Positions 2,515-16,979 of a stretch of DNA of 64,000 nucleotides are shown here, piece after piece. Below the pieces are notes generated by a model. The model did not search any database. It saw nothing but the letters and a program-made list of their open reading frames with translations, and was not told the DNA's origin. The translations under genes and the position numbers were made by a program. Every line of letters begins with the position of its first letter. Position 1 is the stretch's first letter. The DNA is from Candidatus Latescibacterota bacterium (GTDB lineage: Bacteria; Latescibacterota; UBA2968; GCA-2709665): assembly GCA_965248435.1 (NCBI GenBank), contig OZ252100.1, positions 2,336,001-2,400,000 on the forward strand, in the 5' to 3' direction.

Positions 2515-3765
2515 TCAATGTCGAAGCTTCCTCATCACCAGCACCGCGTTGTGACCGCCAAATCCAAAGGAGTTGTTCATCGCGATCTCGACAGGCATCT
2601 CTCGGGCCTGATTCGGCACATAGTCCAGGTCGCACTCTGGATCGGGATGTTCGTAGTTCACAGTCGGAGGAACGCAACTGTCCCTTATGGCCAGAAGGCA
2701 GGCGATCGTCTCTATCGCACCTGATGCACCGAGCAGATGGCCCGTCATCGATTTTGTAGAACTCACGGCCACCTGCTTCGCCCGATCGCCAAAGACCGAT
2801 TTTATCGCCGCGGTTTCATTCTTGTCGCCAATATCCGTAGAGGTCCCGTGCGCGTTGATATAGTCCACATCCTCCGGACTCAGGCCGGCATTCCGGAGCG
2901 CCAGCGTCATGGCCCGCGCCCCACCCCTCCCGTCCGGTGCCATGGCCGTCTGGTGGTAGGCATCTGCGGTGTAGGCCGTGCCGACAATCTCTCCGTAGAT
3001 CGACGCATTCCTCTCGAGCGCGTGCCCGAGTTCCTCCAGCACGATCCCTCCGGCCCCTTCGCCCAACACGAATCCGTCTCTCTCTGCATCGAACGGGCGG
3101 CTGGCGAGCTCGGGTTCGTCGTTTCGTGTAGAGAGCGCCTTCATGGACGCGAAACCGCCCAGGGCAAGGCGACTGACCGCGGCTTCCGCTCCCCCCGTTA
3201 TCATGATATCGGCTTCTCCGTAGCGAATTTCACGAAAAGCGTTCCCGATTGCGTGACCAGCCGAGGAGCACGCGGATACCGTAGCGTAGTTCGGACCCCG
3301 GGCGCCCAGCGAGATCGAGATCTGTCCAGAGGTCATATCAGCGATCATCATCGTGATGAAATATGGGCTGATTCGCCTTGGGCCCTTTTCCATCAAGGCC
3401 GTGTGCTGATCCTCCAGGCTCAGAATCCCTCCGATGCCCGATCCAAAAATGACGCCGACCCGATCTGGATCCTCCGTCTCGATGTCCAGCCCGGAGTCTT
3501 CCACGGCCATATTTGCAGCAGATACCGCATACTGGGTGCAGGGATCGTTCCGGCGGGCCTCCTTTTTCGTCATCCCGAAGTCTTCCGGATCGAACCCCTC
3601 TAGTTCGGCCCCTATCTTGACGCGAAATTCTGATGTATCGAACCGTTGGATCGGGGCGACACCGCTCACACCGGCCCGCAGGGCATCCCAGAACGCAGTT
3701 GTGGACATCCCGTTCGGGGCCAACGTACCCAGGCCTGTAGCGACCACTCTTCGAGTCTTGTCCAC
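2515..3765 (-). CDS. fabF: 3-oxoacyl-ACP synthase II
   Basis: Catalytic motifs SACSS, YINAHGTST, KSMTGHLLGASG and NSFGFGGHNA. Confidence 0.97.
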   Translation of the reverse strand: MDKTRRVVATGLGTLAPNGMSTTAFWDALRAGVSGVAPIQRFDTSEFRVKIGAELEGFDPEDFGMTKKEARRNDPCTQYAVSAANMAVEDSGLDIETEDPDRVGVIFGSGIGGILSLEDQHTALMEKGPRRISPYFITMMIADMTSGQISISLGARGPNYATVSACSSAGHAIGNAFREIRYGEADIMITGGAEAAVSRLALGGFASMKALSTRNDEPELASRPFDAERDGFVLGEGAGGIVLEELGHALERNASIYGEIVGTAYTADAYHQTAMAPDGRGGARAMTLALRNAGLSPEDVDYINAHGTSTDIGDKNETAAIKSVFGDRAKQVAVSSTKSMTGHLLGASGAIETIACLLAIRDSCVPPTVNYEHPDPECDLDYVPNQAREMPVEIAMNNSFGFGGHNAVLVMRKLRH

Positions 3766-3828
3766 AGATCTATCCGCTAGAAGATGTAAGCCAATCTTCC
3801 GCCCGTTTGGTCAACCCGCTTCGGTGAT

Positions 3829-4068
3829 CTACTCACCCAAGCGTTTTTTCAGATAGTCCGTCGCGTCGTTGACCGTTTCAAGCTTCTCCGCATCCTCGTC
3901 GGGAATCTCTAAATCGAATTCCTCTTCGAACGCCATCACCAGCTCGACGGTATCCAGCGAATCTGCACCCAGATCGTCGATAAAATGGGCGTCAGCCGTC
4001 ACACTATCCGCATCGACACCGAGCTGATCGACAATCAGGTCAACCACTTTCTGTTGAACGTCGGCCAT
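3829..4068 (-). CDS. acpP: Acyl carrier protein
   Basis: Phosphopantetheine motif [20 protein letters not shown]. Confidence 0.98.
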
Positions 4069-4080
4069 TGCATCCCTCCG

Positions 4081-4827
4081 TTACATCACCATGCCGCCAT
4101 CCACCACCAGCACTTGCCCGGTGATGTAGACGGCATCATCTGAAACCAGAAAGGCGACAGCAGCTGCGACATCTTCCGGCCTTCCGAAGACGCCCAGCGG
4201 GATCTGTGCGAGGAGTTTGTCCTTTACATCTGTACTTAAATCTGACGTCATTTCAGTTGGGATGAAGCCGGGAGCGACCACGTTTGCCGTGATGCCGCGC
4301 CCCGCCAGTTCCCTAGCTACGGTCTTCGTGAGCCCGATCAGACCCGATTTGGAGGCCGTGTAGTTGATCTGGCCCGGATTTCCAACCAGCCCCGTGACGG
4401 ATGAAACCGTCACGATCCGGCCACTGCGGGCGCGCATCATCGCTCGCGCCGCGGCCTTGATGCAGAGAAAGGCCCCTTTCAGGTTAACGTCCAAAACGAC
4501 ATCCCAGTCCGCCTCCTTCATCCGCATCAACAGCGCATCACGCGTGACACCCGCGTTGCTGACGAGGATGTCAACTCTGCCCCAGCTGTCCAGCACAGTC
4601 TTGAAAAGCGTCTCCACTCCGGCGGGATCTGAAACGTCCGCCTGTAACCCGAGTGCGCGCCGCCCCAGACTTTCGATCTGCTCCGCGACCCCCTTTGCGG
4701 CCTCCACGCTCTTACTGGCGCAGACCGCCACATCAGCCCCTTCACCCGCCAGACGCAGCGCAACGGCCTCTCCGATCCCCCGCGACCCTCCCGTCACGAC
4801 AGCCGTCTTGCCTTCGAGGCGACTCAC
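4081..4827 (-). CDS. fabG: 3-oxoacyl-ACP reductase
   Basis: TGGSRGIG, NAGVTRD, NPGQINYTASKSG and GQVLVVDGGM. Start placed at the GTG at 4827, which overlaps the fabD stop (GTGA). Confidence 0.96.
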   Translation of the reverse strand: MSRLEGKTAVVTGGSRGIGEAVALRLAGEGADVAVCASKSVEAAKGVAEQIESLGRRALGLQADVSDPAGVETLFKTVLDSWGRVDILVSNAGVTRDALLMRMKEADWDVVLDVNLKGAFLCIKAAARAMMRARSGRIVTVSSVTGLVGNPGQINYTASKSGLIGLTKTVARELAGRGITANVVAPGFIPTEMTSDLSTDVKDKLLAQIPLGVFGRPEDVAAAVAFLVSDDAVYITGQVLVVDGGMVM

Positions 4828-5744
4828 CCCGCAACCTCCTCGATCTCCTCGAGGGTTCCTGCGCCTGAAACCGGCAGCTTGCGATCGATCCTCCGCATCA
4901 GCCCTTGCAAAACGCTGCCTGGGCCGACCTCGATCGCGCGGTCGATCCCCTCTGAAATCAAGCGTTTGATACTGTCCGTCCACTTGACGGGTGAAACTAC
5001 CTGTTCGAGAAGAAGGCGCTTTAGCTGATCTGGATCCTGCGTCGGTTCGGCCGTCACATTGGGGATCACGGGCACACGCGCCGGAGAAAATGCGATCGTT
5101 TCCAGGACACCGGAAAGCGGCTCAACCGCCGGCTCCATCAGGGCCGAATGAAAAGCCCCGCCGACAGGGAGTTCGATGCACCGTTTTGCACCCCTCGCGG
5201 GGGCCTCTTCCAAGATCCGATCAATCCCCGCCCGATCACCCGAGAGGACCACCTGACCGGGACAGTTGTAGTTCGCCGGTGAGACCACGCCTGCATCGCA
5301 AACCGATTCGCATAGTTCGCCGATCTCCTTTTCAGAAAGTCCGAAAACTGCGGCCATCTTTCCGGGTCGGCCCTCTCCCGCCGCCTGCATCGCCTTTCCC
5401 CTGATGCCCACAACCCGGAGCCCGTCTTCGAGGGAGATCACACCGGCGGCCACCAGTGCCCCAATCTCTCCAACGCTGTGTCCCGACACGATGTCCGGAC
5501 GAATCCCCTTTCCTTCGAGCATGCCCAGGACGGCCAGGCTGTGTGTGAAAACTGCCGGCTGCGTGACCGACGTCCGTTTCAAAGCGGCTTCAGGACCGCT
5601 GAAGCATAACGACTTCAGTCCGATTCCCAGAATCTCATCGGCCAGATCGAACACGTCCCGGGCCGCTTCCGAAGCGGCGTAGAGGTCCTGCCCCATCCCC
5701 ACGTACTGCGAAGCCTGCCCGGGGAACAAAAAAGCCAAAGGCAT
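4824..5744 (-). CDS. fabD: Malonyl-CoA:ACP transacylase
   Basis: FLFPGQASQ, TQPA, GHSVGE, GAFHS and EVGPG motifs. Confidence 0.97.
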   Translation of the reverse strand: MPLAFLFPGQASQYVGMGQDLYAASEAARDVFDLADEILGIGLKSLCFSGPEAALKRTSVTQPAVFTHSLAVLGMLEGKGIRPDIVSGHSVGEIGALVAAGVISLEDGLRVVGIRGKAMQAAGEGRPGKMAAVFGLSEKEIGELCESVCDAGVVSPANYNCPGQVVLSGDRAGIDRILEEAPARGAKRCIELPVGGAFHSALMEPAVEPLSGVLETIAFSPARVPVIPNVTAEPTQDPDQLKRLLLEQVVSPVKWTDSIKRLISEGIDRAIEVGPGSVLQGLMRRIDRKLPVSGAGTLEEIEEVAG

Positions 5745-5787
5745 AGGCTGGGACTAATATCCAAAGGCCAAAGGTTCGGTCCCCACG

Positions 5788-6783
5788 CTAATAGGCCCAC
5801 CTCAGAAGGGCGCTTCCCCAGGTGAATCCCGCCCCCGCACTCGCCACAAGAACCTGATCCCCCCTGCTTACGCGCCCCCCCTCCACAGCATCGGAAAGCG
5901 CGATCGGAATCGTCCCGCACGTCGTATTCGCGAACCGATCGATGTCGATCAACACCTTGTCCTCCGGCAGGTTCAATTTCCGAATACTCGCATCTATGAT
6001 GCGTTTGTTGGCCTGATGCGGGAGGAACAACGCAATGTCTTCACCCGTAAGCCCGTTTCGTTCAAGGAGGTCTGCGGATACCGAGGCCATGCTATTCGTA
6101 GCAAACTTGAACACTTCGCGCCCATCCTGACGCACGTAATGCATCCTTTTGTCTACCGTTTCGTGGCTGGCCGGATGAAGGCTGCCTCCTCCTGGCTGAG
6201 AGAGGTACTTCCCACCCGAGCCGTCGACCTTGAAGATGAAGTCTTGTATACCCTCGCCGTCCTCTCCGGGTTCCAGGAGTACGGCACCTGCGCCATCCCC
6301 GAAAAGCACGCACGTGGACCTGTCTGTGTAGTCGACAATGCTGCTCATCTTATCGGCGCCAATCACGACCACTCGCTTGTGTGCACCCGATTCGACAAAC
6401 TGACAGCCCACGATGAGCGCGTAGAGAAACCCGCTGCAGGCGGCGGACAGGTCGAACCCCCATGCATTCTTCGCCCCGACGTTTTCCTGAACAAGGCACG
6501 CCGTTGCGGGGAACATCATGTCGGGCGTTACGGTAGCGACGATGATCAGGTCAACATCTTTTGCATCCAAACCCTTCTGCTCGAGCAGGTTTTCCAGGGC
6601 CCGCGTCGCAAGGAAGGAGGTTCCCAAACCGTCATCAAGGATCCGTCGCTCCCGAATACCGGTTCGAGACTGGATCCATTCGTCCGTCGTATCTACCATC
6701 TTTTCCAGATCGGCATTCGTCAATTTGCGGTCTGGGAGGTAGCGGGAAACGCCGGTTATTGAAGCGCGGAAACGCACACCCAT
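5788..6783 (-). CDS. fabH: 3-oxoacyl-ACP synthase III
   Basis: DLSAACSGF, LFGDGAGA, PHQANKRII and GAGFTWG motifs. Confidence 0.97.
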   Translation of the reverse strand: MGVRFRASITGVSRYLPDRKLTNADLEKMVDTTDEWIQSRTGIRERRILDDGLGTSFLATRALENLLEQKGLDAKDVDLIIVATVTPDMMFPATACLVQENVGAKNAWGFDLSAACSGFLYALIVGCQFVESGAHKRVVVIGADKMSSIVDYTDRSTCVLFGDGAGAVLLEPGEDGEGIQDFIFKVDGSGGKYLSQPGGGSLHPASHETVDKRMHYVRQDGREVFKFATNSMASVSADLLERNGLTGEDIALFLPHQANKRIIDASIRKLNLPEDKVLIDIDRFANTTCGTIPIALSDAVEGGRVSRGDQVLVASAGAGFTWGSALLRWAY

Positions 6784-6802
6784 CTCGTCAGGACCTCATC
6801 GC

Positions 6803-6985
6803 TTAAACACCTTCGCCCTCGATGACTTCCTGACCTTTGTAATGACCGCAGCTGGGACAAACCCGGTGGGGCTGCCGCTGCTGACCACAGTTCGGACAAT
6901 CTGAGAACGTCGGCACCTGAAGCTTCCAGTGCGACCGTCGCTTGCCTGTCCTCGAATTGGAGCTTCTGCGCTTTGGATGTGCCAT
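6803..6985 (-). CDS. rpmF: 50S ribosomal protein L32
   Basis: MAHPKRR...CPNCG...PHRVCPSCGHYKG. Confidence 0.97.
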   Translation of the reverse strand: MAHPKRRSSNSRTGKRRSHWKLQVPTFSDCPNCGQQRQPHRVCPSCGHYKGQEVIEGEGV

Positions 6986-6999
6986 TCAAAACCCCTTTT

Positions 7000-7509
7000 C
7001 TATTCGCTCGCCAAGCCCTGCAGCGCTTCCCAGCGCGGATCGGTCTTCTCCTCTTTGCAGTCGCAGCGACCCAGGTTAAAATTCTGACCGCACGACGGAC
7101 ATAGTCCCGCGCACGACTCCCGGCAGACGGGATTCATAGGAATTTCGAGAAGGATGTAATCCTTCACTTGCTCCCCAATATCGATCTTTCCCATCGCGTC
7201 ATCCAGCCAAATGATCGCCTCGTCTTCATCCCCTTCCATGGTTCTCGGGCGACCCTTCTGGAGGATGAACTTGAATCCACCTGTCATCCGCTTGGTAAAA
7301 GGCTCAAGGCACCTTGCGCACGACATCCCGAGCTCGAATTCCGTCTCCCCGGAGACCGTGAGGGACTCCCCCATCTTGAAAACGGTCATGTGAGTTTGAA
7401 TCGGCTTTGAGAAGTCGAACTCCTCATTCTCGATATGGAGCTCTTCCGGCGTCTCTGACCATTCGGACTCGTTGAGACCTTCCTCGAGTGCGTTCAAATC
7501 GACTTCCAT
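7000..7509 (-). CDS. DUF177/YceD family protein
   Basis: CARCL, C.ESCAGLCPSCGQN and DPRWEAL motifs, in the canonical position upstream of rpmF. Start placed at the ATG at 7509. Confidence 0.92.
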   Translation of the reverse strand: MEVDLNALEEGLNESEWSETPEELHIENEEFDFSKPIQTHMTVFKMGESLTVSGETEFELGMSCARCLEPFTKRMTGGFKFILQKGRPRTMEGDEDEAIIWLDDAMGKIDIGEQVKDYILLEIPMNPVCRESCAGLCPSCGQNFNLGRCDCKEEKTDPRWEALQGLASE

Positions 7510-7519
7510 ACCACACTCC

Positions 7520-7957
7520 CTAAGAAGAAACAGCGCCTTCTCCGAAAAAGAACGTAATCTCTTGTGCCCCGTTTTCGGGTGAATCGGACGCGTGCACCGC
7601 ATTCTCCTGAACGTTGCTGCCAAATGCCTTTCGGATCGTTCCCTCCGCTGCCCGAGTCGGATCCGTTGCCCCGACGACCTCCCTGAGGGTGGATACGGCA
7701 TCCTCACGCTCGAGCACTGTTGGGACAGAAGGACCTGAAGTCATGAAATCGATCAAGTCGGGATAGAACGGGCGCTCCCGGTGCACGGCATAAAATTCCG
7801 CCGCCTGTGCACGCGTCAGGGTCATCATTTCCGTCCGAACGATCCTGAATCCCTTTTCTTCAACGAACTTGAGGATCTCCCCGACAATGTTTCGAGCCAC
7901 TGCATCCGGTTTGACGATCAACAGTGTTCTGGCTGCCACAATGATTCCAGTGGACAC
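7520..7957 (-). CDS. ndk: Nucleoside diphosphate kinase
   Basis: RTLLIVKPDAV, FYAVHRERPF, GTIR and NAVHASDS. Confidence 0.97.
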   Translation of the reverse strand: MSTGIIVAARTLLIVKPDAVARNIVGEILKFVEEKGFRIVRTEMMTLTRAQAAEFYAVHRERPFYPDLIDFMTSGPSVPTVLEREDAVSTLREVVGATDPTRAAEGTIRKAFGSNVQENAVHASDSPENGAQEITFFFGEGAVSS

Positions 7958-8352: not shown

Positions 8353-9966
8353 ATGAGCTCGATCTCGCCTGCAATTAACGGAAAAGTCTTCTTCGTGACC
8401 GGGGCCACCGGTTTTGTGGCAAAGGGGCTGGTCGAAAAGCTCCTTCGCGACGTCCCCGGCGTGAGGCGACTCTACCTCCTGATTCGATCGGGAAAGCACG
8501 GTTCTGCGGAGCAGCGACTGGACCGTGAGGTGATCAACTCCAACGTATTTTCCGAGCTGAGGAAACGGCTGGGCCCGAAATTTGAAGAGACGGTTCGACC
8601 GAAACTGGTCGCCGTCGCGGGCGATCTATCCAAGGACCGGATGGGGCTGACCCCAGACGACTACTCCAAACTGCTGCAAGAAGTAGACATCGTCATCAAT
8701 TGCGCAGCGACGGTTGTCTTCGATGAGCGCCTGGACCACGCACTCGAGCTGAATACCCTTGGGCCCCGCCGCATCCTGGAATTCACGAAATCCTGCCGGG
8801 ATGCGATTCTCGTTCACGTATCCACGGCCTATGTCAATAGTCAGCAGACAGGTCACATCCCGGAGAGACTGCTCCCTCCCGGTCAGAAGATCCAAAGAAT
8901 CTTGGGGGACGGGCATTCTCCGGACTTCGATTTGGAGACAGAGATCGAATCGATCCGGCAATTCCGCGATGAGGTCATGTCAGACTCAGAACAACCCGAT
9001 CTCGAAGGCCAATTTCTTCGAACCCTCCAGCAACAGGACAGAGGCAAACGGGTGACCAAGTATCGACGAACGCATCAACTCGATGCCTTGCGCAAACGCT
9101 GGATAACACAAAGACTCGTGAAAGAAGGAATGTCGCGCGCTCGTAGGCTGGGATGGAATGATACCTATACCTTTACGAAGTCCATGGGCGAACAGATCAT
9201 CGCGAAATACCGCGGCAGTCTCCCGACCGCCATCGTGAGGCCTTCGATCATCGAGAGCAGCCTCTGCGACCCGGAGCCTGGGTGGTTGGATGGGTTGAAG
9301 GTTGCCGATCCCCTCTTCGTGCATTACGGTAAGGGCCGACTGGACCACTTTCCCGCGAATCCGGACATCGTGCTCGACGTCGTACCCGTCGACATCGTGA
9401 CAAACGCAATCATCGCTATCCTGCCTCAGGTTAGAAAGCAAAAGGACATGCAGGTCTATCAGGTCGCGACGAGTTCCGTCAATCCGTTGAAGCTTCGAGA
9501 CCTCGCAGACTGGGTCTACGAATACTTTAGGAAGAGCCCGCTGCAGGACAGGGACGGGAACCCAATTCAGGTGCACAAGTGGCGGTTTCCGAGCCACAAG
9601 GAATTTCGGCGGCAGGTTCGCCTGAAATACCAGGTCCCCCTCACCACGATGCTGTGGCTGACGAACCACGTGCCGATCTTCCCGTCCAGCATGAAACGAA
9701 AGGTTTCAATTTTTGAGGCCACGTTCCAACGTCTCCTTTCACTCATCGAAATCTATGGTCCCTACACCACGCTCGATTGCCGATTCGAAACGGAAAACAT
9801 CCGGCGCCTCTACCAAAAGCTGGACCCGGAAGATCGAAAGGTCTTCAACTTCGACGTCTCGAGCATCCGATGGCGAGAGTATGTGCAGGATATACACCTC
9901 CCGGGACTGAAGCGCCACATACTGAAGGACGGTTCGGAGCAGGAACATGTGGAGCATAGTGCATAA
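8353..9966 (+). CDS. Alcohol-forming fatty acyl-CoA reductase (FAR / male-sterility family)
   Basis: TGATGFVAKGLVEKLLR, HVSTAYVN, catalytic YxxxK in WNDTYTFTKSMGE, IVRPSIIES, EPGW, DVVPVDIV and C-terminal FNFDVSSIRW..Y...HLPGL. Confidence 0.9.
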   Translation: MSSISPAINGKVFFVTGATGFVAKGLVEKLLRDVPGVRRLYLLIRSGKHGSAEQRLDREVINSNVFSELRKRLGPKFEETVRPKLVAVAGDLSKDRMGLTPDDYSKLLQEVDIVINCAATVVFDERLDHALELNTLGPRRILEFTKSCRDAILVHVSTAYVNSQQTGHIPERLLPPGQKIQRILGDGHSPDFDLETEIESIRQFRDEVMSDSEQPDLEGQFLRTLQQQDRGKRVTKYRRTHQLDALRKRWITQRLVKEGMSRARRLGWNDTYTFTKSMGEQIIAKYRGSLPTAIVRPSIIESSLCDPEPGWLDGLKVADPLFVHYGKGRLDHFPANPDIVLDVVPVDIVTNAIIAILPQVRKQKDMQVYQVATSSVNPLKLRDLADWVYEYFRKSPLQDRDGNPIQVHKWRFPSHKEFRRQVRLKYQVPLTTMLWLTNHVPIFPSSMKRKVSIFEATFQRLLSLIEIYGPYTTLDCRFETENIRRLYQKLDPEDRKVFNFDVSSIRWREYVQDIHLPGLKRHILKDGSEQEHVEHSA

Positions 9967-11936
9967 TGGACGCACGCTATACCGGTTCAACGCCCATTCT
10001 CGAGCTTCACGTCAACCAGCTGCTCGAGAATCCAGAGCGCATGCTGGATCTCTATGACCGGTCCGCCCGGGAACTGATCGAGGTCGGACGTCTGGAAGGG
10101 TATTTCGAAGGTTGGGATCTTGGCCGCCTGAAATGGCCGTCCAGTCGGCGGGATACCGGGCCTGCAGACATCTCCGAACTTCAGAAGCGTGCAGAGCTTG
10201 TAAATAAAATCTTTCTCGGCGTACCGAAGCTCAGAGGTGAGCGGCTTTCGGATGCCTACTCGCCCTTCAATCGTCTAACCCCTGCTTATCACGAGGGGAA
10301 CCGTCTCTACCTCCAGCTCAAACACGACTTCCTTGCTCGAGGCGCCGGCAACGAGCAGAATTATCTCCAGCTCTACCAGGCGGTCTATGTGGAGGCCCTG
10401 GCTAAGGGAGGCGACCTGTTTTCTCCAGACGCGGGTGAGGCGGCGCTGTCCGAGGCCAGGATCTTTCGCGCACCCCTTTCCCACGCGCAGCCTGTAGCAG
10501 AGGACCTGCCAACCGCAGTGTTGGACGAAGATCCGAGGTGGGAAGAGACCTATTCCTGTAAACTGGATGGCCATCCGATCGAGGCCTCGTTGAGGGATCT
10601 GCTGAAGAAGGTGGCGGAAAGGGCCCTCGACTACGTCAACGCCGGCGGGTTGCTCGCCACCCACTTCAACACCTACAACAACCTCGGCTGGTTTGGCAGT
10701 TCAATCTGGAAAGTGATCGTGGATGTGGACCTTTCTCGTCATCAGATTCAGATCCAACGACCCGGTTCGAATCCCCACGACCTCGCCCATATCCGGAACG
10801 ACATTCATCTCGGTATCGCGATGCTCGTGGAGTTCCTGCAGGCTCATCGCGAAGACCCGGCCAGGCTGAAACCTGAAAAATACTGGTATGGCCAGGACTA
10901 CAGCTATCTCACTCGAGATATGCTGGATCTAGCCCAGCGGCTGATTCATGGGATGAACGAGCAAATCGATGGCAAGGAAAAACTCCAACTTCCACCTCTC
11001 CTGGCGGGCAGTCCCAGCGGGCGGTTTCTCGAATATCCTCACGTAGGCAGGCAGGCTCAGCCTTCACCCTGGAATCGAACCCTCAAGCTCTTGCGATGGG
11101 CGGGGGTCTCCTGGAAAGTGGGCAGACGTCGTGCGAGGCTGGCCAAATCGCAATTGAGCGAGGACCTGCGTTGGCCGCGTGCCTGGCAGGAATGGGTCGC
11201 CTGGTCCGATGCCACGCTTCGCATTTTCGGCATCCAGGTCAAAGTGAGTCTGGATCCGAGCTTTCATTCTGTCGCCAAAGACCTCGACCTGACCCGCGGA
11301 AAGCAGAAGGTGCTCTTTCTACCCACGCACCAATCTCTCCTCGACCACCCCATTATGTATCGGGTCCTGACCTCCCCGGAGCTGATGTCGGCGATGGGTT
11401 GGCGAGAGCCGGTGTCCTGCGCCTTCCTCGCGCGAACGGGGCTCTCCAAGGCTGGAGTGCGGATCGGCAGGTTCGATATGACCATGTTCGGCGTCTCGTC
11501 GGAGAAGTTTGACCGCATGTTCGAGGAACTGGACGGATACGTGACGCGCGAGCGTCTGGAGGGAACCGGTCCCACGGCCCTCAGGCTGGTGGAGGCCTTG
11601 AAGAAACGCCCTGGCGTCATCTATCCCATGGCGACCGTCGGCGCTTTCGATGTCCAGCTCTTTCCGCTACAGCACGCGATGTTCGCCCAACTGCCGCAGG
11701 ATGTAATCATCATTCCCATCGCCTTTCGGGGTGCACACGCGCTCTGGCCCAAGTGTCCTAAGGGAAACCTCCAGATCAATCCGGGCCTCGTCGAAGCCGT
11801 GGTTGCACCCCCGATGCTCGGAGAAACCACGCTGCTGCCCAAGCGCAGATCGCTGCGCATTCAGCTTGAGGCGGCGACACTCTTTCAGGCAGTGCACATT
11901 ACTTCCTTGTTGAATCCTGAACCATCTGCAGACTAG
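9966..11936 (+). CDS. Glycerolipid acyltransferase-domain protein (putative DHAP acyltransferase) with a roughly 400-aa unknown N-terminal domain
   Basis: C-terminal LPLAT-like motifs LFLPTHQSLLDHP (HxxxxD), VIYPMATV and IIPIAFRG. The ATG overlaps the FAR stop (TAATG). Substrate specificity is inferred from gene context. Confidence 0.7.
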   Translation: MDARYTGSTPILELHVNQLLENPERMLDLYDRSARELIEVGRLEGYFEGWDLGRLKWPSSRRDTGPADISELQKRAELVNKIFLGVPKLRGERLSDAYSPFNRLTPAYHEGNRLYLQLKHDFLARGAGNEQNYLQLYQAVYVEALAKGGDLFSPDAGEAALSEARIFRAPLSHAQPVAEDLPTAVLDEDPRWEETYSCKLDGHPIEASLRDLLKKVAERALDYVNAGGLLATHFNTYNNLGWFGSSIWKVIVDVDLSRHQIQIQRPGSNPHDLAHIRNDIHLGIAMLVEFLQAHREDPARLKPEKYWYGQDYSYLTRDMLDLAQRLIHGMNEQIDGKEKLQLPPLLAGSPSGRFLEYPHVGRQAQPSPWNRTLKLLRWAGVSWKVGRRRARLAKSQLSEDLRWPRAWQEWVAWSDATLRIFGIQVKVSLDPSFHSVAKDLDLTRGKQKVLFLPTHQSLLDHPIMYRVLTSPELMSAMGWREPVSCAFLARTGLSKAGVRIGRFDMTMFGVSSEKFDRMFEELDGYVTRERLEGTGPTALRLVEALKKRPGVIYPMATVGAFDVQLFPLQHAMFAQLPQDVIIIPIAFRGAHALWPKCPKGNLQINPGLVEAVVAPPMLGETTLLPKRRSLRIQLEAATLFQAVHITSLLNPEPSAD

Positions 11937-11948
11937 ATAGGATCTCCT

Positions 11949-13799
11949 GTGTCTACGGCTGATGTCATAACGCTTGCAGGCATCCTGGTCCTGGCCGCTG
12001 CCTTTTTCATCCTCGTAAAGAGGCGGGGTCGCGCTCAGCCTCTGGATGTGTCCTACGACCCGTCCGAAGCGCAGAGGTATCATCACAGATGGGGTTACGT
12101 GGACACCCGATTCGAGTTTGACGGACCCAGGAGCGTAAGGGTCACCGGAAGCAGGTATCCCCTCTCGGGTTTTAGCATGCCTTCCTTTGTCCCCTTCATA
12201 GAGGAAGTCCTGGACGTTCAGATTCGACCAGAAGATCTGAACGTGGAAAATAGACCTCACGAGATTCGGGCCCCGGCTCTGAACGAGGCCTTTATGGCCT
12301 CGATCGAGACCGAATTCAAGGAGGATCAGTACTCCATCGATCCCGGAGACAGGTTAGTCCACAGTCACGGACAACTGAGCGTAGACGAGGTCTATCAGAT
12401 CCTGTATGGAACATCCGTGAAGAGGGTGGTCGACCTGGTCCTCTATCCCGAAAAGGAAGAGGATATAGGCACCATCATCCAGTTGGCAGACGAACAGAGT
12501 GTATGTCTGATGCCTTACGGTGGCGGTACGAACGTAAGCGGCGCGCTGGCTTGCCCTTCTGCAGAAGATCGAATGATCGTATCGGTGGATATGAGAAGGA
12601 TGAGCCGAATCTTGTGGGTCGATGAAGAAAACTTTCAGGCCTGCGTCGAGGCGGGAATCACCGGCAAACAGCTTGAAAAGGAGTTGGACGCGAAGGGATA
12701 TACCTCGGGGCACGATCCGGACAGCATCGAGTTTTCAACGCTGGGTGGATGGATCTCAACGAACGCCAGTGGGATGAAGAAGAACAGATACGGCAACATC
12801 GAAGACATCGTGCTCGAAGCCACGCTGATCACACCCACCGGAAACGTTGAAACCCTGGCCGTGACGCCAAGAAGTTCTATCGGCTCACAGCCCAGGTCTC
12901 TTTTGTTCGGAAGCGAGGGGAATTTCGGAATCATCACCAAGGCCGTCATCAAGATCCACGCGAGACCCAGGGTGCGAAAATACGGCTCACTGGTGTTCCC
13001 GACATTCGAGAGAGGCGTCAGCTTCTTGAAGGAATTGCGCACACAGGGGATATTGCCCGCGAGCATTCGACTCGTCAGCAATAACGAATTCAGATTCGGA
13101 CAGGCGCTCAAACCCGAACCCACCTTTATGAAGGGGATCGTAAACGGACTTCAGCGGTTCTTTCTTCTTCGAATCCTGGGGTTTGATTCGAAAAAGATGG
13201 TTGCATGTACCATCTTGATGGAAGGATCAAGAGCAGAAGTGTCTCAACAGGAACGATCGATTTTCAGCATCGCCAAGAAGCATAAGGGTAAAAGCGGTGG
13301 TGCAGCCAACGGAAAGAGGGGCTACACGCTCACCTTTGGTATCGCCTACATCAGAGACTTCTGTAATGAGTGCCACGTCCTGGGTGAAACGTTTGAGACC
13401 TCCGTCCCGTGGAACAGAATCCACCACGTCTGCCAGGGCGTGGAAAGGGGATTGGTCGAAGAAGCCAAGAAAAGGAACGTTCCGGGGAAACCCTATCTGT
13501 CCTACCGTGTGACTCAGACCTATCACACCGGCGTATGCATCTACTTCACGATGGGTTTCTATGGAAAAGGGATGGAGAAGCCGACGGACGTTTTTCACGA
13601 GATAGAAGGTCGTTTGCGGCAGATCATTCTGGATAACGGGGGTTCTTTGTCTCACCACCACGGCGTCGGCAAGGTTCGACAGCCGTTTTTGTCTCAGGTC
13701 CACTCCGAAAACAGCATCAATGTCCTGCGCCAATCCAAAAAGGCGATGGATCCGAACAACACGTTCGGTATCAGAAACGGCGTGTTTGGTGACACCTGA
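11949..13799 (+). CDS. Alkyl-dihydroxyacetonephosphate synthase (FAD-linked, VAO family) with an N-terminal TM anchor
   Basis: AGPS-type motifs WGYVDTRF, TGSRYPLSG, PYGGGTNV, GHDPDSIEFSTLGGWISTNASGMKKNRYGNIEDIV, GSEGNFGIIT, PASIRL, GETFETSVPW, RVTQTY..GVCIYF, GGSLSHHHGVGK and DPNN.FG. Confidence 0.9.
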   Translation: MSTADVITLAGILVLAAAFFILVKRRGRAQPLDVSYDPSEAQRYHHRWGYVDTRFEFDGPRSVRVTGSRYPLSGFSMPSFVPFIEEVLDVQIRPEDLNVENRPHEIRAPALNEAFMASIETEFKEDQYSIDPGDRLVHSHGQLSVDEVYQILYGTSVKRVVDLVLYPEKEEDIGTIIQLADEQSVCLMPYGGGTNVSGALACPSAEDRMIVSVDMRRMSRILWVDEENFQACVEAGITGKQLEKELDAKGYTSGHDPDSIEFSTLGGWISTNASGMKKNRYGNIEDIVLEATLITPTGNVETLAVTPRSSIGSQPRSLLFGSEGNFGIITKAVIKIHARPRVRKYGSLVFPTFERGVSFLKELRTQGILPASIRLVSNNEFRFGQALKPEPTFMKGIVNGLQRFFLLRILGFDSKKMVACTILMEGSRAEVSQQERSIFSIAKKHKGKSGGAANGKRGYTLTFGIAYIRDFCNECHVLGETFETSVPWNRIHHVCQGVERGLVEEAKKRNVPGKPYLSYRVTQTYHTGVCIYFTMGFYGKGMEKPTDVFHEIEGRLRQIILDNGGSLSHHHGVGKVRQPFLSQVHSENSINVLRQSKKAMDPNNTFGIRNGVFGDT

Positions 13800-13901: not shown

Positions 13902-14717
13902 TTGACTGATTCCTTCCGCGAAAAGACCGTCATCATTACGGGCGCGTCTTCCGGCCTCGGCGCAACGCTGGCCGAGGAGTTTTCTAAACGTGGCGCTCGC
14001 CTCGTCCTGTTCGCGCGAACCGAACAGAAGCTCAAAGAAACCGCGGATCTTTGCCAGAATTCCGGATCCTCACCCCTGATTGTCACAGGAGATGTGACCG
14101 ACCCCCGGGACTGTGAGAAGCTGATAGAAAAGGCTGTCGCAAACTATGGCGATGTGGATTATTTTGTTGCGAATGCAGGCGTGAGTATGTGGGCCAAGTT
14201 CGAGGACGTGAAGGACATCTCGATATTCGGGAGGATTATGGAAACGAACTACCTGGGTACGGTCCACAGCGTTTACTACGCGCTTCCGTATCTGAAAAAA
14301 AGCAAAGGAATGATTGTCGCCATCTCCTCGATCCAGGGAAAGATCGGGGTCCCGCTTCACACCGGTTATGTCGCATCGAAGCACGCCTTGCAGGGTTTTC
14401 TGGCGTCACTTCGCGCGGAAATAAGCGGGAGCGGCGTCCACGTCCTCACTGTGCTGCCCCATTGGATGAGAGGTACTCATCTCAGAAAAAATGCGCTCGG
14501 CAAAGACGGATTCCCGATCGGTGAATCGAAGAGACACAGCAAAGAGTCGATCTCTCTTCAAGAATGCGCGGCCGCCATCATCAAGGCGATGAATAAGAGA
14601 AAGACGGAGCTGGTCATCCCACCCAAACTCAAACTCCTCCCCTGGTTGAATCTGATCAACCCAAAGATCGTGAACTTTCTCGTAAAGGGAGAGATGGAGC
14701 GCCAGGAGGAGTCCTGA
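13902..14717 (+). CDS. SDR oxidoreductase, DHRS7B-like (putative acyl/alkyl-DHAP reductase)
   Basis: ITGASSGLG, NAG, METNY.G and IVAISSIQGK.G.P...GYVASKHALQGF..SLRAE (YxxxK). The TTG start is uncertain. Confidence 0.8.
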   Translation: MTDSFREKTVIITGASSGLGATLAEEFSKRGARLVLFARTEQKLKETADLCQNSGSSPLIVTGDVTDPRDCEKLIEKAVANYGDVDYFVANAGVSMWAKFEDVKDISIFGRIMETNYLGTVHSVYYALPYLKKSKGMIVAISSIQGKIGVPLHTGYVASKHALQGFLASLRAEISGSGVHVLTVLPHWMRGTHLRKNALGKDGFPIGESKRHSKESISLQECAAAIIKAMNKRKTELVIPPKLKLLPWLNLINPKIVNFLVKGEMERQEES

Positions 14718-14907: not shown

Positions 14908-15606
14908 TCAATCAGTCATTAAGCGTTCCAGATCGATGTGCCGCTCCACTGACGCGTGCATCTCCCCGAGAAAACCCTTTTCCACATCGACCTCGGAGTC
15001 GAACGGGATCGTACCCAGAGAGGGAATGCCCGAAAGTCGAGTGACGACTTCCGGGCTGGTCTGCGCCGCAGTATCGAGGGGACCCGGCTGTGGGACGCAG
15101 TAGACGACGCCGCACACCTGCAGGTCTCGGGAGGCGGCTGCTTCGAGCGTGAGCAGCGTGTGATTGATCGTTCCGAGGGAGGCTCGGGCGATCACAATCA
15201 GCGGAAGGCCTATCCAGTCCGCCAGATCGGCAACGACGAAATCCTCCCGGATGGGGACGAGCAGCCCGCCTACCCCTTCCACGATCATCCACGAATGTTT
15301 CGAACAGAGTCTCGAAAAGGCCTCCAGCACGCCCTCGAGGTCCACATCTTTCTTTTCGAGACGGGCCGCCACGTTCGGAGAAAGCGGAGCCGCGAACGAC
15401 ACCGGATTGATGTCCTGCATCGCGTCTTGAACACCTGCAGCATGGCGGAGTACGCGGGCATCGTTCGATCCGCCCGTGGACACCGGCTTCATGACCCCGA
15501 CGTCCAGGCCTCGCTCACGGAAGACGCGAACGAGGCCTGCCGCCACGGCCGTCTTTCCCACGCCCGTATCCGTTCCTGCGATGAAGAATCCGCGTGCCAC
15601 ACTCAC
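14908..15606 (-). CDS. bioD: Dethiobiotin synthase
   Basis: FIAGTDTGVGKT, MKPVSTG, VEGVGGLLVP and LGTINHTLLT. Confidence 0.96.
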   Translation of the reverse strand: MSVARGFFIAGTDTGVGKTAVAAGLVRVFRERGLDVGVMKPVSTGGSNDARVLRHAAGVQDAMQDINPVSFAAPLSPNVAARLEKKDVDLEGVLEAFSRLCSKHSWMIVEGVGGLLVPIREDFVVADLADWIGLPLIVIARASLGTINHTLLTLEAAASRDLQVCGVVYCVPQPGPLDTAAQTSPEVVTRLSGIPSLGTIPFDSEVDVEKGFLGEMHASVERHIDLERLMTD

Positions 15607-16979
15607 TCCGCCGATGAAGGTTCAGTAACAGCGCGAATCGACCCGCCTGTGATTTCCAGCATTCGATCCAGCTCCGCCATCTGGATGGCGAGGGGAGGCA
15701 TCAGCACGATCGTATTCCCGAGAGGACGGATCAGCAGCCCGCGATCCCGCGCCTCCTGGCACACTTTTGTGCCGATCCGCGCCTCCCACGGATAGGGCCG
15801 TCTGGATTCGCGGTTCTCGACCAGCTCTATTGCCGCGATCAGCCCACACTGCCGAACATCCCCTACTTGTCCCAAATCCTCGAAACGCAAGACGCCCTCA
15901 CGAAGCCGCTCGATCTTGGGCCGCAGGGCGTCCAGCGTGCCTTCCTGTTCAAAGAGTTCCAATGTCGCGAGTGCCGCCGCGCAGCCCAGTGGATTGCCCG
16001 TATAGGTGTGTCCGTGAAAAAACGTTTTTCGATCTTCGAACTCACCCAGAAAGGCCTCGTAGATTCGATCCGAGGCCATCGTCGCCGCGACTGGGAGGTA
16101 GCCCCCGGTGAGCCCCTTCCCGAGACAGAGCAAATCCGGTGAGATACCCTCCCGCTCACACGCGAACATCGTCCCCGTACGGCCGAACCCCGTCGCCACT
16201 TCGTCGGCGATCAAGAGCACGTCATATTCCCGGCAGAGGTCGGCGGCCCGTTTCAGATACCCTTCGGGGTGAACAAGCAGGCCGCCCGCACCCTGGACAA
16301 GTGGCTCCACAACGAACGCGGCGATTCGATCTGCATTCCGCTTCAGAAGGTCCTCCAGCGCAACCTGGCACCCTTCATTGCATTTCCGCGCTTCGGCGCA
16401 GAACGAACATCGGTAGGGGTGAGGCGCGGGCGTGGCGAGGCTCGAAAACAGGAGCGGACGATACACCTCGTGGAACAGCTGGATCCCACCCACGCTCACC
16501 GCCCCGAGCGTGTCGCCGTGGTAGCTCTCCGTAAAATGAAGAAACGTCTCCTTCTCCGGCCGTGGATCTGAACGCTGTCGCCAGTACTGAAGCGCCATCT
16601 TCAGCGCGGCCTCGACCGCAGTCGCGCCGTCATCGGAATAGAAAACGTGCGTCAGACCGGGAGGCGCAAGGTCAACGAGCTTCTCGGCGAGCCGGATTGC
16701 GGGCACGTTGGAGAGCCCCAGAAGCGTGCTGTGAGCCACCTTGTCAAGCTGATCCCGGATCGCGTCATCGATCGCGCGAACCCGGTGACCGTGCACGTTG
16801 CACCACATAGAAGAAAACCCATCCAGATAGCGCTTACCGTCGATATCCTCCAGATAAACGCCGTCCGCACGGGCGATGACCACCGGCACCTCCTGGGCGT
16901 AGTCCTGCATCTGCGTGAACGGATGCCAGACGAGCTGCCGGTCCAGATCCTTCAGGCGGGTCTTTTCTTCGGGGGTCAT
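15603..16979 (-). CDS. bioA: Adenosylmethionine-8-amino-7-oxononanoate aminotransferase
   Basis: VWHPFTQM, DGFSSMWCNVHGH, YHGDTLGA, DEVATGFGRTG, GKGLTGGYLP and FFHGHTYTGNP. Adjacent to bioD. Confidence 0.95.
   Translation of the reverse strand: MTPEEKTRLKDLDRQLVWHPFTQMQDYAQEVPVVIARADGVYLEDIDGKRYLDGFSSMWCNVHGHRVRAIDDAIRDQLDKVAHSTLLGLSNVPAIRLAEKLVDLAPPGLTHVFYSDDGATAVEAALKMALQYWRQRSDPRPEKETFLHFTESYHGDTLGAVSVGGIQLFHEVYRPLLFSSLATPAPHPYRCSFCAEARKCNEGCQVALEDLLKRNADRIAAFVVEPLVQGAGGLLVHPEGYLKRAADLCREYDVLLIADEVATGFGRTGTMFACEREGISPDLLCLGKGLTGGYLPVAATMASDRIYEAFLGEFEDRKTFFHGHTYTGNPLGCAAALATLELFEQEGTLDALRPKIERLREGVLRFEDLGQVGDVRQCGLIAAIELVENRESRRPYPWEARIGTKVCQEARDRGLLIRPLGNTIVLMPPLAIQMAELDRMLEITGGSIRAVTEPSSAE

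Follow-up and report, generated by a model that had tools for sequence, protein, structure and literature searches.

The 64,000-nucleotide stretch of DNA analyzed here (the window) comes from a Candidatus Latescibacterota bacterium (assembly GCA_965248435.1, contig OZ252100.1, positions 2,336,001 to 2,400,000) and contains a gene, called X (P0001) in this work, that encodes a protein of two domains. The reading that we moderately favor is that X is the acyltransferase of the first, sn-1 step of glycerolipid synthesis in its clade in place of PlsX/PlsY, acting most likely on dihydroxyacetone phosphate (DHAP) as an analogue of GNPAT and serving both ether and ester lipids. That X performs the sn-1 first step is probable. 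That DHAP is its main acceptor is a closer matter, on which the balance tips slightly in favor. The C-terminal half of X has the fold of known glycerolipid acyltransferases, the gene stands in an operon with an alkyl-DHAP synthase, and its distribution in the phylum is nearly the reverse of that of PlsY.

Gene X Is Part of a Four-gene Operon

The genes of the operon and the parts of X are as follows.

8353..9966, + strand: fatty acyl-CoA/ACP reductase of the male-sterility type (FAR, P0002); PF07993 2.2e-71, PF03015 7.7e-17
9966..11936, + strand: gene X (P0001), two-domain acyltransferase of 656 amino acids; its ATG shares one base with the FAR stop codon
9966..11060, + strand: N-terminal domain of X, residues 1–365, a separate predicted fold
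11064..11933, + strand: domain of X with the LPLAT (PlsC/GPAT) fold, residues 367–656, from fold matches
11322..11345, + strand: block I of X, PTHQSLLD, residues 453–460, from alignment
11622..11639, + strand: block III equivalent of X, YPMATV, residues 553–558, from alignment
11949..13799, + strand: alkyl-DHAP synthase (AGPS, P0003) with an N-terminal hydrophobic helix; 4bby, E 4.8e-157
13902..14717, + strand: classical short-chain dehydrogenase/reductase (SDR, P0004), candidate acyl/alkyl-DHAP reductase from its place beside AGPS

X is the second gene of this tight co-directional set, FAR-X-AGPS-SDR. The FAR/X junction reads TAATG, a 1-nucleotide overlap, and 12 nucleotides separate X from AGPS on the same strand. 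Residues 46–610 of P0003 match mammalian AGPS (4bby) with 527 bits (E 4.8e-157) and the next family with 82 bits, so that by sequence P0003 is a genuine alkyl-DHAP synthase. P0004 is a candidate for the enzyme acting on acyl/alkyl-DHAP, given its fixed place adjoining AGPS. The four activities of the cassette are precisely those by which eukaryotes make 1-alkyl-glycerol 3-phosphate (1-alkyl-G3P). The substrate of AGPS is 1-acyl-DHAP, and every genome with AGPS (124 in the phylum set below) therefore needs a DHAP acyltransferase. The context supports X, operon-linked as it is, as the only plausible source of acyl-DHAP for the adjoining AGPS.

An earlier sequence-only reading of the window had given the open reading frame (ORF) of X, the strings quoted from it and the FAR and FAD-oxidase neighbors as we find them; the SDR at 13902–14717 went unmentioned there. 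The window genome (5.67 Mb) is assembled in two contigs and is 97.5% complete. A homologue of X was found in all 41 relatives compared, and both halves of the protein are conserved (mean column identity 51–54%). This conservation of both halves, together with the presence of X in 132 of 168 genomes of the phylum, shows that the gene is not a chance frame.

The C-terminal Domain Has the Fold of PlsC and GPATs

AlphaFold2, run with a 50-row alignment, gave a single compact model of X (pLDDT 90.6, pTM 0.92). In structural comparisons with VIA, residues 367–650 of the model match Thermotoga maritima PlsC (5kym_B) with a Z score of 18.7 and a root mean square deviation of 3.0 over 222 of 232 residues, and the C-terminal domain matches human GPAT1 (8e50_A) with Z 14.3 and squash GPAT (1iuq_A) with Z 12.3. 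Foldseek also finds 5kym with this domain (E 1.2e-4). On the basis of the modeled fold, X is a member of the LPLAT (PlsC/GPAT) superfamily. The sequence-only reading had placed such a domain at the C terminus, and rightly so, but it spans about 290 residues (367–650) and not about 230.

The HX4D dyad of the superfamily is present as H455-Q-S-L-L-D460. H455 is invariant in 50 sequences of the family, as is H461, and position 460 is occupied by Asp or Glu throughout the family. T557 and R588-G589 are invariant in the same 50 sequences, and R490 of block II (F-L-A-R) and P584 of block IV (I-I-P-I-A-F-R-G) are kept in at least 90%. In GPATs, the block II arginine binds phosphate. Block III of canonical LPLAT enzymes is of the F-P-E-G-T-R-S type. 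In the window it is altered to YPMATV, as had been read before, and the consensus of the family is Y-P/G-x-G/A-T-T, in a register placed by eye and by the Pfam match, not by residue-level structural alignment. The canonical Arg position holds Thr or Val, and Arg was never seen. The Glu position varies (M, A, T, V, L, Q), and Glu itself occurs at three loci of one AGPS-bearing genus (L086, L089 and L090; Y-G-E-G-T-T). The proposal that the altered block III marks a DHAP enzyme is thus not borne out. When the X family profile was compared with the PlsC of the same genome by hhalign, only block IV was aligned, with a probability of 0.2, too weak for placing the other motifs.

X has no transmembrane segment (top 19-residue hydropathy 1.2). 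Residues 366–422 form two helices that align with the N terminus of PlsC and contain 7 Trp and 12 Lys/Arg against 4 Asp/Glu, a composition that fits an interfacial membrane anchor.

The N-terminal Domain Is a Conserved Helical Bundle

Modeled alone, residues 1–365 are predicted with pLDDT 90.6 and pTM 0.89. In the model the domain is an elongated helical bundle with two long helices of 56 residues each (69–124 and 209–264) and one β-hairpin (195–208). Its conservation equals that of the catalytic half. The invariant residues include N239, H294, W307, Y308, Y312, R317, and D321, and D31, R90, R93, E158, N235, E296, T316, and D318 are near-invariant. Residues 233–249 read HFNTYNNLGWFGSSIWK and residues 305–322 read KYWYGQDYSYLTRDMLDL.

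Foldseek gave nothing for this domain at E ≤ 0.001, the best match having E 0.25. In a VIA comparison with 48,161 chains, the best match was a designed five-helix bundle (Z 8.2), and the matches after it form a flat series of unrelated bundles. We do not regard the matches of these fold searches, which are only to generic helix bundles, to GPCR-like bundles, or to α-pore-forming toxins in their soluble forms, as relatives (TM ≤ 0.3, Z ≤ 8.2). The ESM Atlas gave no usable match for residues 1–365. A search for short forms as stand-alone N-terminal domains gave three proteins, none of which covers more than 40% of the domain; this is weak evidence that such forms are lacking. The view that the N-terminal part matches no family has held with every tool tried, and fold prediction with Foldseek and VIA, the structural check proposed in the sequence-only reading, yields a confident bundle with no fold relative; the part measures about 365 residues and not about 400.

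Two functions had been suggested for this domain. A scaffold for AGPS is unlikely, since the domain is equally conserved in lineages without AGPS, and nothing was found in favor of a second enzyme. A complex prediction of FAR with the N-terminal domain scored 0.00 against a mark of 0.32 and is uninformative either way. A module that docks to the membrane or to a partner protein is our guess.

The X Family Is Isolated in Sequence

The family comprises 124 clusters at 90% identity (E ≤ 0.001). Among the 120 clusters listed, the members are 630–686 residues long and 42–96% identical to X. Most sources name them "hypothetical protein," and one labels a member "1-acyl-sn-glycerol-3-phosphate acyltransferase." Nearly all source names seen are of the former kind, so that annotation pipelines miss the family. 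An exhaustive phmmer search with X against 1.84 billion representatives returned 50 proteins, all of them members of the family or pieces of members, and did not reach any ordinary PlsC or GPAT. Seven of these matches are at least 600 residues long; the others have at most 370 residues, and each covers a single stretch of X.

Against Pfam and NCBIfam, the X of the window matched no family at E ≤ 0.1, and it did not match the PlsB equivalog model TIGR03703. X alone found no PDB sequence at E ≤ 10, and a 50-member profile of the family found only noise in the PDB (E 0.5–0.8). No homology to GNPAT, GPAT1, or PlsB was detected by phmmer or by the PDB sequence searches, with no GNPAT aligned directly. 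When relatives of X were scanned singly against PF01553, 21 of 50 matched at E ≤ 1, the best with 8.9e-8. Two of them, P0123 and P0124, exceed the Pfam gathering cut-off of 23 bits with 28.5 and 32.5 bits, their residues 421–563 aligning with profile positions 13–131. Among fused homologues, none of 1149–3280 residues was found, which is weak evidence against their existence.

The literature searched held nothing on the X family or on a bacterial DHAP acyltransferase of this kind, in a survey that left some supplements (GNPAT homologue datasets) uncovered, and these may list members. Homologues of elbD and agps have been noted in Latescibacterota metagenome-assembled genomes (MAGs), in a phylum that, in the available part of that report, had not been linked to ether lipids before (10.64898/2026.06.23.733905). 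The records with close relatives of X carry the labels Latescibacterota, Gemmatimonadota, Eisenbacteria, Handelsmanbacteria, Zixibacteria, and Trueperaceae, and several of these MAG labels look unreliable.

X Occurs with FAR and AGPS across the Phylum

Gene contexts were compared at 156 loci encoding a relative of X, one genome being taken per species, and the best 80 loci were kept. In 49 of these 80, FAR lies directly upstream of X, and in 41 there is an AGPS, mostly followed by the SDR. X stands alone amid unrelated genes in 31. FAR without AGPS was seen at eight loci, three of which (L029, L041, and L051) end just after X; the other five (L014, L016, L049, L053, and L058) have FAR-X followed by about 7 kb without AGPS. 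The tree of X has two clades, one FAR-linked (50 rows) and one stand-alone (31 rows), and the split has 96% support.

The phylum set comprises 168 genomes, all of them MAGs. The numbers of genomes with each protein are as follows.

X: 132 of 168
FAR: 130 of 168
AGPS (E ≤ 1e-100): 124 of 168
P0004-type SDR, adjoining AGPS: 119 of 168
PlsX (PF02504): 34 of 168
PlsY (PF02660): 29 of 168
GpsA (PF07479): 29 of 168

Every genome of families f1 to f3 has X, as do 74 of the 76 in f4 and one of the five in f14, and X also occurs in f8. Of the 168 genomes, 123 have both X and AGPS, 9 have X without AGPS, 1 has AGPS without X, and 35 have neither. Two of the nine genomes with X alone are fragmented (G032 with 430 and G036 with 480 contigs). 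A recheck of five others (G053, G082, G084, G155, and G158) at E ≤ 1e-10 gave only generic FAD-oxidases of 25–31% identity. X is also carried by G041, G173, and G174, which belong to a lineage outside the phylum and its 168 genomes and which lack PlsX, PlsY, GpsA, and AGPS.

A second, divergent type of AGPS, 47–48% identical to P0003 where the usual orthologues are 60–68% identical, occurs in a few genomes (G083:C96:7956-9662, G156:C4:36347-38050, and G099:C428:10186-11898). G099 has both the divergent and the usual type.

The Standard Entry into Phospholipid Synthesis Is Missing

To our knowledge, the first acylation in bacteria is regarded as settled, being carried out by PlsB or by PlsX/PlsY with glycerol 3-phosphate (G3P) from GpsA. 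In the 132 genomes of families f1 to f4, which make up the X-bearing class, neither PlsY nor GpsA was detected; PlsY is also absent from f8, and GpsA has the same distribution by family. PlsX was found in one genome of the 132 (G150), and PlsB (TIGR03703) in none of the 21 genomes searched. Over the whole set, X occurs with PlsY in 1 genome (G079) and without it in 131, and PlsY occurs without X in 28. Neither was found in eight genomes, six of which are 57–80% complete. G079 is the sole genome of the set with X together with PlsY and GpsA, and X coincides with PlsX only in G079 and G150. We found no account of a loss of GpsA, PlsX, and PlsY from Latescibacterota in the literature searched.

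The lack of plsX is also visible in the window itself, where a fatty acid synthesis (fab) cluster is divergent from the FAR-X-AGPS-SDR operon, 645 nucleotides apart. The cluster (2515..7707) consists of the following genes.

7000..7707, - strand: yceD
6803..6985, - strand: rpmF
5788..6783, - strand: fabH
4824..5744, - strand: fabD
4081..4983, - strand: fabG ORF
3829..4068, - strand: acpP
2515..3765, - strand: fabF

In many bacteria, plsX lies between rpmF and fabH. In the window this place is a gap of 20 nucleotides (6783–6803); two genomes of the phylum that do have PlsX, G055 and G080 (L106 and L107), have the gene in this place. A plsX-less fab cluster followed by FAR-X-AGPS-SDR is seen at 25 of the best 80 loci. 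The fabG frame, listed with a GTG start, overlaps fabD by 160 nucleotides, and as its SDR domain does not begin until residue 59, translation probably starts at a more internal codon. On the 3' side of the operon and on the opposite strand (14908–16979, -), there is a BioD/BioA-like pair, a dethiobiotin-synthetase-like gene (AAA_26) and a class-III aminotransferase.

The window genome encodes three PF01553 proteins, a 202-residue PlsC adjoining cmk, a 445-residue protein beside an MFS transporter, and an AMP-binding-PP-acyltransferase protein. Besides X, a single small PlsC-like match to PF01553 was found in G020 (one contig, 100% complete), G026 (one contig, 99%), G053 (two contigs, 99%), and G173. 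Phosphatidic acid requires two acylations, and in these four genomes X and one PlsC-like enzyme are therefore the detectable candidates. The window genome has neither GpsA nor a glycerol kinase above the family cut-off. In a class without GpsA, PlsX (G150 apart), PlsY, or PlsB, the simplest scheme would have DHAP as the acceptor for all glycerolipids. Frog GNPAT alone sustains the growth of yeast lacking its own GPATs, as far as the available part of the report goes (PMC10204775), and a scheme with DHAP only is thus workable.

FAR-Acyltransferase Fusions Occur in Relatives

Family f4 and G076 have a fusion of about 1420–1450 residues that begins with FAR and continues with AMP-binding, (PP-binding), and acyltransferase domains. 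The fusion of G173 consists of FAR, AMP-binding, and HAD domains (1246 residues). The fusions are located at L103:3671-7945, L104:3507-7856, and L105:1209-4949. At two of the AGPS-less loci (L014 and L016), FAR-X has a HAD hydrolase and an acyl-AMP ligase in its vicinity. The window genome has a stand-alone AMP-binding-PP-binding-acyltransferase protein (L098; G000:C1:2777117-2780548; an open frame of 928 residues), and close homologues of it are limited to g1 (the genus of the window), g2, g4, and family f3. This type of protein, with an ACS, an acyl carrier protein (ACP), and an acyltransferase (AT) domain, was considered as a general replacement of PlsY and rejected, because at E ≤ 1e-40 only 19 of the 168 genomes have it, none of them belonging to g3 or g6.

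Two genomes that retain PlsX/PlsY, G079 (L038) and G176 (L055), bear the full FAR-X-AGPS-SDR cassette. The X proteins of both genomes form the longest terminal branches of the X tree (0.79 and 1.05). The cassette in these genomes fits a horizontal transfer of a self-sufficient module of FAR, DHAP acyltransferase (DHAPAT), AGPS, and reductase.

Proposed Role of X

From the fold, the motif, the operon, and the phyletic patterns observed, we infer the acceptor, the acyl donor, the acylated position, and the substrate of the SDR. X would be a peripheral-membrane acyltransferase that has taken over from the lost PlsX/PlsY. With acyl-CoA or acyl-ACP as the donor, its H455/D460 dyad would acylate DHAP, AGPS would exchange the acyl chain for a fatty alcohol made by FAR, and reduction of the keto group by the SDR would yield 1-alkyl-G3P or, when AGPS is bypassed, 1-acyl-G3P. 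The single PlsC-like enzyme would then add the sn-2 chain. In its widest form, which we put forward tentatively and with rather more doubt than belief, the class and the outside lineage or lineages would make all their glycerolipids, ester and ether, by a peroxisome-style acyl-DHAP route, with X as the sole enzyme of the committed step and its N-terminal domain as a new module with a conserved polar site.

Several observations weigh against this role for X. The nine X-bearing genomes without AGPS at E ≤ 1e-100 and the AGPS-less lineage outside the phylum also lack GpsA and, where tested, the P0004-type SDR. Lineages of this kind keep X and FAR; there, either another reductase would act on acyl-DHAP or X would use glycerol phosphate of unspecified source. 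The genome G076 (96% complete) has neither X nor PlsX, PlsY, or GpsA and carries a FAR-ACS-ACP-acyltransferase fusion, so X is not the sole conceivable replacement. The absence of GpsA is no proof that G3P is absent, because G020 and G026 encode a glycerol kinase and because G176 has PlsY (two copies) without GpsA. In addition, the genus g1 has a distant GldA/EgsA-like dehydrogenase of the Fe-ADH family (341 residues, L108:910-1935, - strand; counterpart in the window genome at G000:C1:3751550-3751843), which might provide an alternative route to glycerol phosphate; its likeness to glycerol 1-phosphate (G1P) or glycerol dehydrogenases is weak, the best g1 protein reaching 79.8 bits against a cut-off of 413 bits for G1P dehydrogenase. 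As a probe for G1P dehydrogenase, PF13685 (Fe-ADH_2) was rejected as unspecific, since it matches all 21 genomes scanned and also 13 of 14 controls. The phyletic pattern reflects few independent events, namely one class, one further family (f8), and one lineage outside the phylum, and plsY and gpsA, which adjoin each other where present, may have been lost jointly in a single deletion. The X of the window has no PF01553 match at E ≤ 0.1 and thus falls below the gathering cut-off, and the role predicted for X is drawn entirely from genomes, each of them a MAG.

X might instead acylate G3P (or G1P) as a PlsB analogue, with any acyl-DHAP for AGPS supplied by a side reaction or by a different enzyme. 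The persistence of X and FAR in lineages without AGPS and the P0004-type SDR speaks for such an activity, as do the closest folds (PlsC and GPATs), the retained R490, the glycerol kinase of G020 and G026, and the weakly EgsA/GldA-like dehydrogenase of g1. We consider it unlikely, because GpsA is missing from all 132 genomes of the class, the window genome has no glycerol kinase above the cut-off, AGPS requires acyl-DHAP for which G020 and G026 hold no other candidate enzyme, and the cassette would be redundant in the PlsY-bearing G079 and G176 if X merely duplicated PlsY. The converse restriction, that X is a GNPAT for ether lipids only and that ester phospholipids are begun by another, unrecognized enzyme, follows the logic of the sequence-only reading and is suggested by the operon with FAR, AGPS, and SDR and by the cassette in genomes that retain PlsX/PlsY. 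It would leave the class with no first-step enzyme that we could find for its ester lipids (PlsY and GpsA 0/132, PlsX 1/132, PlsB 0/21); moreover, the four near-complete genomes have one PF01553 protein besides X, and X is kept where AGPS is not, all of which makes the restriction quite unlikely. The GNPAT role itself, as first proposed, is upheld by the operon, by the need of AGPS, by the cassette in G079 and G176, and by a family isolated in sequence; only its confinement to ether lipids looks too narrow, since X tracks the loss of GpsA, PlsX, and PlsY across the class.

It is very improbable that X is the sn-2 acyltransferase for 1-alkyl-G3P (AGPAT) and that the small PlsC-like protein or some other enzyme performs the first step. 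The best structural match, the LPA acyltransferase 5kym, and the one source name given above would agree with an sn-2 enzyme. Yet the small PlsC-like gene adjoins cmk, as canonical plsC often does, G079 and G176 presumably have a native sn-2 enzyme (one was not searched for) and would need a DHAPAT and not a second AGPAT, and both the formation of acyl-DHAP and the first acylation would be left without an enzyme. Scarcely credible to us is an X that esterifies the fatty alcohol of FAR, as in wax ester synthesis, or that acylates a non-glycerol acceptor. FAR-X is the most conserved adjacency and persists without AGPS (L014, L016, L049, L053, and L058), which speaks for such an activity, but the clade would then have no first-step acyltransferase whatever, the conserved block II arginine suggests a phosphorylated acceptor, and the bacterial wax synthases that we know of belong to another family.

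Comparison with Known Acyltransferases

The predicted acyl-DHAP job of X is that of animal GNPAT/DHAPAT (EC 2.3.1.42) and of the acyltransferase half of FARAT from Myxococcus xanthus (MXAN_1675) and Tetrahymena, as described in the available part of PMC13012113. The partners FAR, AGPS, and acyl/alkyl-DHAP reductase are common to these systems, and both sides have an LPLAT domain with HX4D. FARAT couples the FAR to the acyltransferase by fusion, whereas X and FAR are separate polypeptides coupled by the 1-nucleotide gene overlap. X differs further in having no detectable sequence likeness outside its own family, a block III without Arg, and a 365-residue helical domain before the C-terminal acyltransferase, for which no counterpart is described in GNPAT or FARAT in the material available. 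Its role also seems to reach all glycerolipids, GpsA, PlsX, and PlsY being absent. The comparison partly supports the proposal that X acts like GNPAT/DHAPAT and the FARAT acyltransferase half without being a member of either by sequence.

The match to T. maritima PlsC spans the whole of that protein, including its N-terminal two-helix segment, at 13% identity. X is nearly three times longer, its predicted acceptor is DHAP or G3P and not lyso-PA, and the genomes with X hold a separate small PlsC-like gene. With Escherichia coli PlsB and human GPAT1 (8e50), X shares a large soluble or monotopic build, extra helical parts, and the proposed committed step, but the domain order differs, and its N-terminal domain aligned with no part of GPAT1. 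PlsX/PlsY would hold the same metabolic position as X, and the two distributions are exclusive in all but one or two of the 168 genomes. The proteins and the chemistry are unrelated, PlsX/PlsY using an acyl-phosphate donor and PlsY being an integral membrane protein.

The FAR-ACS-(ACP)-AT fusions of the relatives, together with the FAR-AMP-binding-HAD fusion of G173, share their domain set with the ElbD/ElbE-type enzymes of M. xanthus, and the AGPS-less loci, where ACS, FAR, X, and HAD are clustered, have the domain set of the elb genes, in both cases as far as the available part of PMC13012113 describes them. X itself lacks ACS, ACP, and reductase domains. The acyltransferase domains of the fusions score 64–74 bits against PF01553, which X does not match, being far more divergent.

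Significance

In a class of uncultured marine bacteria, all four standard entry proteins of phospholipid synthesis go undetected, and an unannotated protein family is tied to an ether lipid cassette of the animal type. X has a plausible claim to be a third bacterial solution of the first acylation, beside PlsB and PlsX/PlsY. If X acts on DHAP, or on both DHAP and G3P, it would be the missing enzyme of AGPS-dependent ether lipid synthesis in bacteria, and the clade would offer an example of a free-living bacterium that possibly starts every lipid from DHAP. The family would then also serve as a sequence marker by which alkylglycerol lipids in marine samples could be assigned to their producers. 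The origin of the eukaryotic FAR/GNPAT/AGPS pathway has been argued to be myxobacterial, in the part of PMC13012113 available, and the operon of the window would add a data point to that question.

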